A DNA stretch of 40,184 bases from Candidatus Nanohaloarchaea archaeon (GCA_046497485.1 JAWOFP010000029.1:1-40184); one strand, 5' to 3'. Shown: positions 17,676 through 28,144, counted from the first letter of the stretch. The notes: generated from the sequence alone by a model not told the origin. Numbers and translations are program-made.

Positions 17676-18416
17676 ATGAAGATCGAAAATTCTTTCATCC
17701 ATATCCCTGGAATAGGCAAAAAAACAGAGAAGAAATACTGGAAGAAAGGCCTAACACACTGGGACCAGCTAAGAGACTCAGGAAGTCTAAGCGACAATAA
17801 AAAGCAGCACTTAGAGAAGGCTGAAAAGAATTTAGAGGTCGGAAACTCACTTTACTTCAAACAACAATTACCCTCCAAATCACTTTGGAGGCTCTACGAA
17901 AACTTTGCGGAACAAGCCTGCTTCTTCGATATAGAGACCACAGGCCTTTCAGCAAAAAAGAACAAGACCACTACAGTAAGCTTCTATAGGAACGGAGAGT
18001 CTAAAACATTGATTAGAGGTCAAGACCTAACTAGGGAAAGATTAGAGGAAGAACTTTTCGAGTCAAAGATTCTTGTCAGCTTTAACGGTAAGAGATTTGA
18101 CGCTCCTTTCCTTGAACAAAACTTTGACTTAGATATTGAAACCCCACATATTGACTTAATGTATCCTGCGAAGAGAATTGGCTTGAGCGGAGGCCTGAAG
18201 AAGATTGAGAAAGAGCTTCAAATTCAGAGAGAGTTAGAGGATATCGATGGACGAGAAGCAGTCAGGCTGTGGAAAAAATACGAGAAAAACAATAACGAAG
18301 ACGCGTTAGAAAAGCTGGTTAGGTATAATCAGTACGATGCTGTAAACCTCAAAGAGCTGACAGAGATAATAGTTGATAAGCTGGATAACGAGGTTTTCAG
18401 GCCTCACATTGAGTAA
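17676..18416 (+). CDS. RNase H-like (YprB/DEDD) exonuclease with N-terminal HhH
   Basis: IPGIGKK, FFDIETTGL, SFNGKRFDAPFL, GGLKKIE, YNQYDAV. Confidence 0.88.
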   Translation: MKIENSFIHIPGIGKKTEKKYWKKGLTHWDQLRDSGSLSDNKKQHLEKAEKNLEVGNSLYFKQQLPSKSLWRLYENFAEQACFFDIETTGLSAKKNKTTTVSFYRNGESKTLIRGQDLTRERLEEELFESKILVSFNGKRFDAPFLEQNFDLDIETPHIDLMYPAKRIGLSGGLKKIEKELQIQRELEDIDGREAVRLWKKYEKNNNEDALEKLVRYNQYDAVNLKELTEIIVDKLDNEVFRPHIE

Positions 18417-18821
18417 TTAAATCATATTCAAGGCCTTCAATGATTTGAGCTGGCCCATTGTCTCATGAGTTTTTAGTTCTTCCAAGGTAAGCCATTTGAA
18501 ATCAGAATGTTCATAATCTAGCTCTAATTCCTTATTATCAACTTCAATATGAAAAGGATAAATATTCCAGAGGCCTAGTTCTCCTTCTCCAATGTGGGAG
18601 TCTCCTAAATCGATTATTTCTCCTTTAAGACCTGTCTCTTCTTTCAGTTCGCGAAGGGCTGCTTCTTTTGCAGACTCTCCTTCTTCTATTTTTCCTCCTG
18701 GAAAAGTCCATTCGCCGGAGCTGGAGTTTTCCTGGCTTCTTTTCAGCAGTAGAAACTCTCCGTCTTTTTCTGGTACTGCTAATGCTACTTCGCCATTTAT
18801 CTCTCTTTCAGGCTTATCCAT
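18417..18821 (-). CDS. Nudix hydrolase (MutT-like)
   Basis: Nudix box GGKIEEGESAKEAALRELKEETGL. Confidence 0.93.
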   Translation of the reverse strand: MDKPEREINGEVALAVPEKDGEFLLLKRSQENSSSGEWTFPGGKIEEGESAKEAALRELKEETGLKGEIIDLGDSHIGEGELGLWNIYPFHIEVDNKELELDYEHSDFKWLTLEELKTHETMGQLKSLKALNMI

Positions 18822-18911
18822 GCTTTATTTCAGGTATTGAAGGTTTTTAGTTGTTTTTCAGAGCGTTATGGAACTAAAGATTTTTAAGTAGGGGGCGGCA
18901 ATTGTTAGATG

Positions 18912-19393
18912 AAAATGGCCCTAGTTGCTAATACTAAATGGCTGACCGGAAACATGTCCATGTCAATGGATCTGGTGAGACCTAGCTTTAACCATAGGGC
19001 CAAGACTAAATTCTCCATTATTAATTATCTGGCAGAGTAAAGCGGGATGAAGTCTTGGTCCGATTGGTGGACCAACGACCGACCGCGAATACTCAAAAAA
19101 TTACAAAAGCTTAGTTGACCTCTGCTTCTGCGGAACAGATTAGGTTAGAGGACAACTAGCAAGGGCAGGTCTGGCTTGCAAGGTGAGGCCTGCTCTTCGA
19201 CCCCTCTTATCAACGACTTAAACTTTGATAGATTAGAAGAGGTGCCAACCAAAAAATGAACGCCAACACACGCGACTTTGAAGCCGAACTTGAAGCACAG
19301 GACTTAGAGGTACGAGAAGCTCCTAAAGTTAATTCGGAAGCAGAAGTAGTTACAGCGACCGCTCTCTAAGAACATAAAAGCAGTGCTGCCAGA
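18912..19393 (+). ncRNA. Putative large structured RNA or structured leader, class unknown
   Basis: TTTTTAAG box at 18881-18888 followed by at least six helices (see findings) in an otherwise gene-dense region. Ends are approximate. Confidence 0.65.
19256..19369 (+). CDS. Unannotated 37-aa peptide inside the structured RNA
   Basis: GAGGTG SD at 19239-19244; MNANTRDFEAELEAQDLEVREAPKVNSEAEVVTATAL; acidic with host-like codon usage. Confidence 0.6.
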   Translation: MNANTRDFEAELEAQDLEVREAPKVNSEAEVVTATAL

Positions 19394-19426
19394 GAAAAAG
19401 GAAAGAATTCCTCCAGAGGAAAAGAT

Positions 19427-19903
19427 TTATTCCTGATTACTGTAGGCAGCAGACTCGAAAGCAGCCCAGCCGTTAGCCATAGAATCCAGTATCGAAGTAA
19501 AAGACTTAGCTGGCTTCACGACTTTTCGACGGCCTTGAGACCCTTCATTCGAATCACGATACTCCAAATATTCATACTGAATCACGCCTAGACGACGCAA
19601 CTTTGGCAAAATATTGTTCTTAAGATTTGACAGGCCTTTCTCATGACCCCATTCACCGAAATTATTTAATTTTTCTGAATCAATCTCTCCTTCAGCCTTT
19701 AATTCTCGCAGAAAGATTTTTGCGTACTTGTTCCGTTTCGGCGATTGTTCATGTGGGAAGAAAAGATCGACGAGTTTCTCCCAGTTCCAGGCCCTTTCAC
19801 TTAACTTGTATTTTTGTCTATCTTCAGGGATGGCTATAGAGTTTTTAGTTACAATAGTAGAGGTCTTTCGTGCTTCCTCATCTACAAATGGATGATCTGA
19901 CAT
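19427..19903 (-). CDS. Hypothetical protein, probable winged-helix DNA/RNA-binding fold
   Basis: 158 aa; NILPKLRRLGVIQY...GRRKVVK recognition helix and wing pattern; unusually non-acidic for this proteome. Confidence 0.75.
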   Translation of the reverse strand: MSDHPFVDEEARKTSTIVTKNSIAIPEDRQKYKLSERAWNWEKLVDLFFPHEQSPKRNKYAKIFLRELKAEGEIDSEKLNNFGEWGHEKGLSNLKNNILPKLRRLGVIQYEYLEYRDSNEGSQGRRKVVKPAKSFTSILDSMANGWAAFESAAYSNQE

Positions 19904-19976
19904 AAAGAAAGTATAACTTCTCTAATTGATAAAGTTCTTGGAAACTGATTAAAACCGCGAGGCCTCATTCAAATTT

Positions 19977-20402
19977 ATGAAGGGAATCACCCCTGTAGTC
20001 GCTATCGTCCTATTAATGGCTGTTACTGTAGCTGCAGCAGGAACGCTTTGGACTATGATAGAGGATACTCAGGAATCAGCTCAGGAAAATGCTCCTATGA
20101 TCGAATTCAATACAGATATTCTAAATGTAGAGAGCTGCTGGTACAACAATGCTGAAGACCAAGTTAGGCTTCAGATCAGAAACGAACACTCAACGGATGC
20201 ATTGAACATCAGCAGAGTCAATTACTACTATGAGTACGATTTAACCGAAGTAGATATAGAAGGAAATGAAGAAATAATAGGGCCGCAGAGATCCTGGAGA
20301 GTATATATAAACGATTCCAGCCCTGAAGATGTTCCAACCATCGAGATCAGTAATCAAGGGAACACAATGACCCACAGATGCTTCAATCTTGACACATCTT
20401 AA
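19977..20402 (+). CDS. Archaeal type IV pilin (class III signal peptide)
   Basis: MKG|ITPVVAIVLLMAVTVAAAG prepilin peptidase motif. Confidence 0.9.
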   Translation: MKGITPVVAIVLLMAVTVAAAGTLWTMIEDTQESAQENAPMIEFNTDILNVESCWYNNAEDQVRLQIRNEHSTDALNISRVNYYYEYDLTEVDIEGNEEIIGPQRSWRVYINDSSPEDVPTIEISNQGNTMTHRCFNLDTS

Positions 20403-27955: not shown

Positions 27956-28060
27956 CTAAATTATTTTTACAGTTTCAGGCCTTTTAGGCATTTTAACTTG
28001 TCCCTCAGTTTGCTTGTCTGCCATTAGCTCAACTTCAAAATTTTTGGAATTTGCATCCAT
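27956..28060 (-). CDS. Putative 34-aa small protein
   Basis: Strong SD GAGGAGGCGA upstream; MDANSKNFEVELMADKQTEGQVKMPKRPETVKII. Confidence 0.45.
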   Translation of the reverse strand: MDANSKNFEVELMADKQTEGQVKMPKRPETVKII

Positions 28061-28063
28061 AAA

Positions 28064-28144
28064 TTAATCGCCTCCTCTTTGTGCTGCGGATTTTATCCAA
28101 GATTTCCCAGAAATGGCTTTCCTCTTGTTCAGCTTCTTAACCAT
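28064..28144 (-). CDS. Putative 26-aa basic peptide
   Basis: MVKKLNKRKAISGKSWIKSAAQRGGD; stops 3 nt before the next ATG. Confidence 0.3.
   Translation of the reverse strand: MVKKLNKRKAISGKSWIKSAAQRGGD

Follow-up and report, generated by a model that had tools for sequence, protein, structure and literature searches.

The locus considered here raises the question of what a short open reading frame (ORF) is doing inside a structured RNA of an archaeon. The frame, 37 codons long, lies in a stretch of 40,184 nucleotides (nt) of DNA from Candidatus Nanohaloarchaea archaeon (GCA_046497485.1, JAWOFP010000029.1:1-40184), the whole of which is called the window. A reading of this sequence alone had seen in the frame a resemblance to the tag frame of transfer-messenger RNA (tmRNA), and as alternatives a structure-gated small protein or the precursor of a ribosomally synthesized and post-translationally modified peptide (RiPP). 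Comparison with related genomes suggests that the frame, ORF2, is probably the downstream cistron in a two-cistron micro-protein mRNA that has a structured spacer. This lineage-specific element of one Nanohaloarchaea family has another small frame, ORF1, as its first cistron.

A Conserved Micro-Protein Gene

19256-19369 (+): ORF2, a 37-residue acidic micro-protein, MNANTRDFEAELEAQDLEVREAPKVNSEAEVVTATAL, with its ATG at 19256 and TAA at 19367-19369
19239-19244 (+): Shine-Dalgarno (SD) sequence of ORF2, GAGGTG, the GGTG core of which is kept in homologues

The frame and the SD sequence noted in the sequence-only reading are present, and the frame is conserved. The ORF2 peptide was recovered by tblastn in 18/19 loci of relatives, the exception (L010) being cut off by a contig end, and the region 18822-19426 was matched by blastn in 23/24 other genomes of the same family. 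For the 19 sequences the median ratio of nonsynonymous to synonymous substitution rates (dN/dS) is 0.25. Column entropies at codon positions 1, 2 and 3 are 0.84, 0.49 and 1.40, the third being about three times the second, and the sole indel in the alignment is 3 nt long. The N-terminus is kept as M/I-N/D-A-N-x-R-x-F-E-x-E-L-x-A, the middle is acidic and variable, and the C-terminus is again kept and is hydrophobic, ..V-V-x-A-T-A-L followed by the stop. Synonymous changes dominate these conserved ends; for example, the terminal TAL is spelled ACC GCT CTC, ACA GCA CTT or ACG GCG CTA. Frame, stop position and SD are kept over 29 distinct loci, a set that does not include L044 and L047, which lie at contig ends, or L046, in which no motif occurs within 450 nt. 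ORF2 is very probably a translated gene.

A profile of ORF2 matched 39 clusters at E <= 0.001 among 1.84 billion representative proteins. The match was always C-terminal within the predicted database protein, which indicates that the longer database predictions have been mis-extended upstream. The profile is present in 47 of 70 genomes sampled from the phylum, the window's own included. By family, with that genome excluded, it was found in 44/49 genomes of the window's own family (f1), 1/10 of f3, 1/8 of f4 (a weak match), 0/1 of f2 and 0/1 of f5. The locus is single copy per genome, ORF2 occurring once in each of the 44 other f1 genomes that have it. Since Nanohaloarchaea live as obligate symbionts and have genomes of about 1 Mb, a single-copy locus present in nearly every genome of the family is likely to be important. 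Named genomes contain 27 homologous loci, mostly titled Nanohaloarchaea, Nanohalarchaeota or Nanohalobium and including one in the complete genome of strain SG9; the remaining titles are 'uncultured archaeon' (four), Asbonarchaeaceae (one) and 'Colwellia polaris' (one).

A structural model of ORF2 (AlphaFold2, from the 19-row alignment) has a helix at residues 3-21 and is otherwise unstructured, with a mean predicted local distance difference test (pLDDT) score of 70.6. The predicted complex of ORF1 with ORF2 scored 0.00, the fold of the partner being itself uncertain. Language-model neighbours in a protein atlas all scored <= 0.79 and gave no lead.

Some of the homologous loci carry unexpected labels. 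L041 (JBLGBK010000002.1) is a 122-kb contig with a nanohaloarchaeal element, filed under a metagenome-assembled genome titled 'Colwellia polaris'; this bin is probably mislabelled or contaminated. In L058, titled Asbonarchaeaceae, both ORFs are identical to those of L027 (G039; the only hit outside family f1). The window also contains a 34-residue ORF at 27956-28060 (-), MDANSKNFEVELMADKQ..., that shares its N-terminal motif with the ORF2 family (profile E = 1.8e-4). This ORF is preceded by a strong GGAGG SD, follows a 26-residue basic ORF (28064-28144) by 3 nt, and was found in its own genome only, with one weak hit among 49 family genomes.

Start of ORF2 Translation

GGTG (GGTA in one case) is found 9-16 nt 5' of codon 1 of ORF2 in 29/29 distinct loci. 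Codon 1 is ATG in 16 of these, and ATC, ATA or ATT in the other 13; this non-ATG codon 1 is the one feature of the start that looks tmRNA-like. An ordinary explanation is available in most of the non-ATG loci, namely initiation at a GTG, which lengthens the peptide by three residues. In 11/13 non-ATG loci, compared to 2/16 ATG loci, the conserved GGTG supplies such a GTG in frame, exactly 9 nt 5' of codon 1 and with no stop between; a canonical ATG or in-frame GTG exists in 27/29. The non-ATG loci fall mostly in one clade and so represent few independent events. A normal ATG with its SD, which the sequence-only reading had counted against its own tmRNA comparison, is conserved among the homologues as a canonical start plus SD. 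The pattern of substitution together with the conserved SD and start argues for conventional translation of ORF2.

The Upstream Frame and a Probable Promoter

18881-18888 (+): TATA-like box, TTTTTAAG, about 27 nt 5' of the ORF1 ATG, in a conserved alignment block
18915-19040 (+): ORF1, 41 residues, MALVANTKW...FSIINYLAE, overlapping the 5' RNA domain

Conservation of the DNA starts well 5' of the coordinates given in the sequence-only reading. The TATA-like motif starts 30-42 nt 5' of the ORF1 ATG, and its start lies within 28-38 nt in 25/29 distinct loci (a regular-expression count). By the usual archaeal distance from TATA box to start, this spacing would put the transcription start at or just before the ORF1 ATG; we infer a leaderless or near-leaderless transcript.

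ORF1 is open in 29/29 distinct loci, with a length of 35-43 residues. It is separated from ORF2 by about 215 nt in the window and by a spacer of 184-322 nt among the loci. In a nucleotide alignment made with MAFFT, which is not codon-aware, each of the 23 distinct gap runs inside ORF1 has a length divisible by 3. The corresponding fractions in non-coding parts are 3/12 for the hairpin behind ORF1 and 23/80 for the spacer. The in-frame gap runs indicate that the ORF1 frame itself is under selection. Sixteen database proteins match ORF1 and, where named, are called 'hypothetical protein'.

Conserved RNA Structure

18917-18924 with 18994-19001 (+): helix P1, which includes the G of the ORF1 ATG
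18942-18949 with 18972-18979 (+): helix P2, CUGGUGAG, also predicted by RNAalifold
19042-19086 (+): kink-turn (K-turn) hairpin with canonical stem (C-stem) GCGG 19042-45 / CCGC 19083-86, directly after the ORF1 stop codon
19109-19160 (+): variable mid-spacer hairpin, enclosing a conserved pyrimidine-rich motif, ...CUCU..GYGGAAC
19163-19195 (+): hairpin 2, nearly invariant at its top, UGCUUGCAAGGUG

The RNA over ORF1 and the spacer carries helices supported by covariation. For the 5' domain, 32 pairs (P1, P2 with a 3-bp extension, and the hairpin 19042-19086) were scored in an alignment of 27 sequences (A4). Of 839 cells 90.2% are paired, and in 14/32 pairs both sides vary (39 cells). Scores as high came from only 0-1 of 500 shuffles, and sliding the partners by 1-3 columns lowered pairing to 28-48%. 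In P1, 89% of cells are paired and 3/8 pairs have both-side changes; the compensatory exchange is GGCCCUAG/AUAGGGCC in the window for GGCCUUGG/CCAAGGCC in most relatives. In P2 the values are 89.3% and 4/8. Hairpin 2 has 94.8% of cells paired and both-side changes in 10/15 pairs (52 cells), a figure reached by 0/500 shuffles. The mid-spacer hairpin is drawn from a reading of alignment A5 and a single-sequence fold, not from pair counts, and the size of its helix differs between two clades. Two loci, L043 and L051, are absent from A4 and A5 because the regular expression for the hairpin end missed them; the K-turn motif is visible by eye in both.

The hairpin directly behind ORF1 has a bulge GAU (19046-48), tandem G.A pairs formed by GA 19049-50 with GA 19081-82, followed by a helix of about 10 bp that ends in a loop. 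It has the parts named in the K-turn definition of PMC5539422: a short canonical stem, a 3-nt asymmetric bulge, two tandem G.A pairs and a non-canonical stem (NC-stem). The same paper gives GAU as the bulge of the Sulfolobus acidocaldarius l7ae leader. GG.AUGA and GACC are invariant in 27/27 aligned sequences. The C-stem is 100% paired, with variants in which GCGG/CCGC becomes GUGG/CCAC. The NC-stem pair 174/207 is CG in 21 sequences and UA in 6, and two tip pairs have 9 double changes each. A gene of the L7Ae family is present in the same genome (contig C62, 97.5 bits), and L7Ae may well bind this predicted K-turn.

A covariance model built on ORF1 and the K-turn hairpin (R1) gave one match per genome in 44/70 phylum genomes, with 42/49 in f1. 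In the pairs compared, the R1 match shares contig and strand with ORF2 and lies within a few hundred nt of it. No Rfam family reached its gathering score in the window, none was meaningful at E <= 10 over 18750-19500, and none matched at E <= 0.1 in 20 homologous loci.

A short motif, YGGAA(A)C, occurs three times in the RNA: as CUGGAAAC in the 5' domain (18946-18952), as GUGGAAC in the mid-spacer (19132-19138), and, in most relatives, as CCGGAAC 3' of hairpin 2. Either GUGGAAC or CCGGAAC could, in some genomes, be the partner of one upstream GUUCC.

Alternative Pairing

19000-19006 with 19052-19058 (+): candidate alternative helix, CCAAGAC with GUCUUGG, which excludes the K-turn hairpin and overlaps P1 by 2 nt

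The 5' domain contains near-repeats. GGCCUUGG, at the 5' end with the ORF1 start codon, resembles GCCUUGG, the 5' strand of the K-turn hairpin; CCAAGGCC and CCAAGGC, both within ORF1, resemble each other and the 3' strand of that hairpin. The candidate alternative helix is paired in 99.5% of 189 cells, with both-side changes in 2/7 pairs (CG to UA in three sequences, GC to AU in the window). In the same three sequences column 104 covaries with its partner in P1 and with its partner in the alternative helix. When folding was constrained to one state or the other, the energy difference ranged from -6.4 to +7.9 kcal/mol in 15 of the 27 rows of A4 (L008, L009, L011, L012, L015, L016, L018, L019, L020, L022, L024, L037, L039, L055 and L060). 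These are the rows in which the forced hairpin state came within 10 kcal/mol of the free fold; the other 12 were set aside.

A true switch between two folds is, on these comparisons, rather unlikely. It is likewise doubtful that a leaderless translated mini-ORF and an L7Ae-bound K-turn compete through the CCUUGG/CCAAGG repeats, which would make the element an undescribed kind of archaeal riboregulator. If they do, the fold of the 200-nt spacer, and with it the output of micro-protein, would depend jointly on the passage of ribosomes over ORF1 and on how much free L7Ae there is, an attenuation-like logic in Archaea read out at translation or RNA stability.

Stems Around the Shine-Dalgarno Sequence

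19203-19242 (+): SD stem, CCTCTT/AAGAGG, present in the window's genome and not conserved
19028-19393 (+): 8-bp closing helix of a domain of about 365 nt, present in the window's genome and not conserved

The sequence-only reading placed ORF2 in a closed domain with its SD sequestered. In the sequence itself both elements are there: CCTCTT at 19203-19208 is complementary to AAGAGG at 19237-19242, and TCTGGCAG at 19028-35 to CTGCCAGA at 19386-93. Both stems appear in the minimum-free-energy fold of 19020-19400 (z = -3.26 compared to shuffles); the centroid fold of the same region keeps 6/8 bp of the outer stem and drops the SD stem. Neither is kept in relatives. In most of the 29 homologues GGUG is predicted to be paired, but its partners are at positions that are not homologous. 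For the closing helix, duplex energies of own and cross-genome pairs are -10.67 and -10.43 kcal/mol (p = 0.27), and the closest relative, L009, lacks it. The A-rich 'resume-like' context 5' of the ATG is not conserved either. Of the proposed structure-gated small protein there remain the protein and RNA structure in general, but neither the SD-sequestering stem nor the 365-nt closing helix.

Expression

Parts of the stretch occur in 20 public runs, of which three are RNA libraries. Two metatranscriptome runs from one study gave a 364-nt contig over 18924-19287 and two 151-nt contigs at 19087-19383. These runs gave no contig on 18300-18923 or 19384-20000, whereas the DNA run covers all 30 bins of 18300-20000; four runs were placed on this region, the third RNA run (X23) gave no contig, and uncovered parts are not evidence of silence. 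As a weak hint, the element may be much more abundant as RNA than its neighbours. The variants in the RNA contigs are D7N, one synonymous change and R20E, as would be expected of a coding frame whose middle is variable.

An intergenic small RNA of 266 nt, conserved in nanohaloarchaea, has been reported from halite metatranscriptomes (PMC7002113) and could be the present locus. Neither 'STRG.4577.1' nor 'Nanohaloarchaea' was found in the two supplementary files of that paper. The element was not found described in the published literature searched.

A Possible Mechanism and Its Rivals

In a two-cistron mRNA the TATA-like box would drive an RNA of about 480 nt beginning at or just before the ORF1 ATG. 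Covariation shows that over ORF1 and the spacer the RNA is folded into P1, P2, the K-turn hairpin and a second long hairpin. ORF2, with its own SD, would be translated conventionally to an acidic peptide with an N-terminal helix and a hydrophobic end. The archaeal K-turn protein L7Ae would bind the K-turn, and its binding together with translation of ORF1 would select the hairpin fold over the alternative CCUUGG/CCAAGG pairing. The choice of fold would then set translation of ORF1, of ORF2 or of both, or the stability of the RNA.

The proposal that the frame is the tag of a tmRNA-like rescue RNA, with trans-translation resuming at GCC, is so improbable as to be negligible. What speaks for it is the look of the peptide, which starts xNAN and ends in apolar ..ATAL, the position of the frame within a conserved structured RNA, and the 13/29 homologues without ATG at the conserved first codon. 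It fails on four defining features: a tRNA-like domain, SmpB, a tag frame without a start, and a bacterial or organellar host. ARAGORN found 0 tRNA and 0 tmRNA genes in the window, and no tmRNA model scored at E <= 10 over 18750-19500; the Rfam searches of the window and 20 loci were likewise negative. In the window's own genome the tmRNA model gave only sub-threshold hits, on other contigs, the best at 21.9 bits against a cut-off of 47. SmpB (PF01668) was absent from that genome (0.97 Mb, 97.35% complete), while the control search was positive in 10 bacterial genomes. The source organism is an archaeon, the window encoding a family-B DNA polymerase, an archaeal histone, an archaeal type IV pilin, GrpE and DnaK; tmRNA is known only from bacteria and organelles. 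The start signals described above, an SD in every distinct locus and an ATG or in-frame GTG in nearly all, also stand against a resumed frame, and the residue preceding the Ala belongs to the conserved protein (N or D). The likeness to tmRNA (RF00023, permuted forms included) is a superficial one of peptide look only, ..AN.. near the start and an apolar end, and an 'AN...apolar end' peptide within a structured RNA is insufficient for a tmRNA call.

A RiPP-type precursor, in which ORF2 would be a leader-core peptide processed by a modifying enzyme, is highly improbable. ORF2 is short, has an acidic helical N-terminal part and a conserved T/A-rich C-terminal end, and one weak language-model neighbour is a RiPP leader family (score 0.76, below the lead threshold). 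However, the neighbouring genes lend the idea no support: Pfam scans of them gave NUDIX, RNase_H_2, histone and pilin matches and no adjacent modifying enzyme, protease or exporter, no genome-wide search for RiPP enzymes having been made. The peptide has no Cys, its sole Ser/Thr cluster is TAT, and the genomes are reduced, at about 1 Mb. A chance ORF in a conserved non-coding region, from which no peptide is made, would agree with the shortness of the frame, its absence from the annotation of most records and the upstream mis-extension of many database predictions. It is very unlikely in view of the low dN/dS, the synonymous changes that dominate the ends, and the frame, stop and SD kept over all distinct loci. 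The remaining rival is an L7Ae-bound structural non-coding RNA as the main product, with both reading frames secondary, i.e., a dual-function RNA. Conservation at the nucleotide level and covariation span ORF1 and the spacer, the K-turn is invariant, the coding signature of ORF1 is weak, and the contigs from RNA libraries are restricted to the element. The reported 266-nt small RNA would also speak for it if it comes from this locus. It is nonetheless unlikely that the RNA is the main product: the ORF2 protein is under clear purifying selection, the ORF1 frame is kept in every gap run, and the SD and start are conserved. A dual role would be compatible with these observations.

Several points weigh against the two-cistron mRNA with a structured, possibly switching spacer. 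At L021 and L042 codon 1 of ORF2 is ATT, without a canonical in-frame start, and in the clade that uses GTG one GGTG would have to double as SD and start codon. The evidence for translation of ORF2 is comparison of sequences, and neither ORF2 nor ORF1 matched a Pfam or NCBIfam family. The coding signal of ORF1 is weak (dN/dS 0.58, entropies by codon position 0.71/0.80/0.94), so that ORF1 may matter only as a translated frame. The RNA evidence consists of assembled contigs from one study, and contigs cannot show ends, strand or a single transcript. With regard to folding, the forced hairpin is more than 10 kcal/mol worse than the free fold in 12/27 rows, which we think were distorted by alignment register. 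The mean pairing probability of the SD is 0.87, compared to 0.79 with a shuffled upstream spacer and likewise 0.79 for other G residues. Between the SD and either the mid-spacer CCUCU motif or the stretch after hairpin 2 there was no covariation, and own and cross-genome duplex energies gave p = 0.08 and 0.25.

Other Known RNA Classes

Several structured RNAs of archaea were considered and rejected. RNase P RNA was a candidate since the window's own genome has no match to RF00373; in relatives the RF00373 matches lie at other loci than the element, for example on C40 rather than C34 in genome G003, and at 914713 rather than 35038 in G022. Neither RF00373 nor a same-genus RNase P RNA used as blastn query detected one in the window's own assembly, and 24/40 relatives had a match; the missing gene is probably an assembly gap. 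Signal recognition particle RNA is located elsewhere, on contig C59. Box C/D small RNAs have the consensus boxes C (RUGAUGA) and D (CUGA), flanking single-stranded guides of at least 10 nt, and usually C'/D' boxes. The corresponding sequences in the element are GGGAUGA and CCGA; a covarying helix occupies the 30 nt between them, and there is neither a guide nor a C'/D' box.

Neighbouring Genes

The genes around the element encode an RNase_H_2-family protein, a NUDIX hydrolase, a winged-helix-like protein, a pilin, GrpE and DnaK. In the window's genome the element and the RNase_H_2-family gene (17676-18416) are separated by the NUDIX hydrolase gene, 18417-18821 (-), whereas most relatives have the RNase_H_2-family gene directly before the promoter of the element.

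The convergent neighbour at 19427-19903 (-) encodes 158 residues, matches no Pfam or NCBIfam family and is syntenic with the element in most relatives. It is unusually conserved, with 59 homologues at 65-91% identity. Most hits are unnamed; the named sources are all 'hypothetical protein' and nanohaloarchaeal, save one fragment labelled Aenigmatarchaeota. Its AlphaFold2 model is winged helix-like with a long C-terminal helix (pLDDT 65, residues 1-38 low), and the best Foldseek rows are weak (E = 0.014, AbfR2, LmrR/PadR).

Comparison with Known Systems

No Pfam, NCBIfam or Rfam family corresponds to the two micro-proteins or to the folded RNA of about 340 nt, and the genome annotations of the lineage have therefore missed them. 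The locus may be a case of RNA switching coupled to an upstream ORF in Archaea, where long structured leaders are rare.

Dual-function RNAs such as tmRNA, RNAIII/hld, SgrS/SgrT and SR1/SR1P also combine a conserved structured RNA with very short conserved ORFs. The element differs from these in having no sequence or structure match to them in Rfam, and neither a base-pairing target nor a tRNA-like domain is known for it. With leader-peptide attenuators of the trp/his type it shares the layout only, a short predicted frame overlapping repeats that could pair either 1:2 and 3:4, or 2:3. Unlike those leaders, ORF1 has no run of regulatory codons or conserved repeated codon, and the host is an archaeon. 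The K-turn hairpin, in the 3:4 position, is followed by A-rich sequence with no U-tract, and so is not an intrinsic terminator.

A parallel is offered by the S. acidocaldarius l7ae and nop5-fibrillarin leaders described in PMC5539422; regulation of mRNAs by L7Ae through K-turns is established there for Sulfolobus. The element shares with these leaders a short C-stem, two tandem G.A pairs and a helix, with the GAU bulge of l7ae, and in both cases the K-turn is in an mRNA beside translation signals in a genome with an L7Ae gene. In contrast to the leaders described in that source, where the K-turn lies over the SD, that of the element is a predicted one that comes just after the stop of a small upstream ORF, about 170 nt before the SD and within a much larger conserved fold, and the downstream gene is a micro-protein rather than a ribonucleoprotein (RNP) protein. 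If L7Ae does act here, the locus would be a concrete case of K-turn/L7Ae-linked mRNA control outside the genes for RNP proteins.

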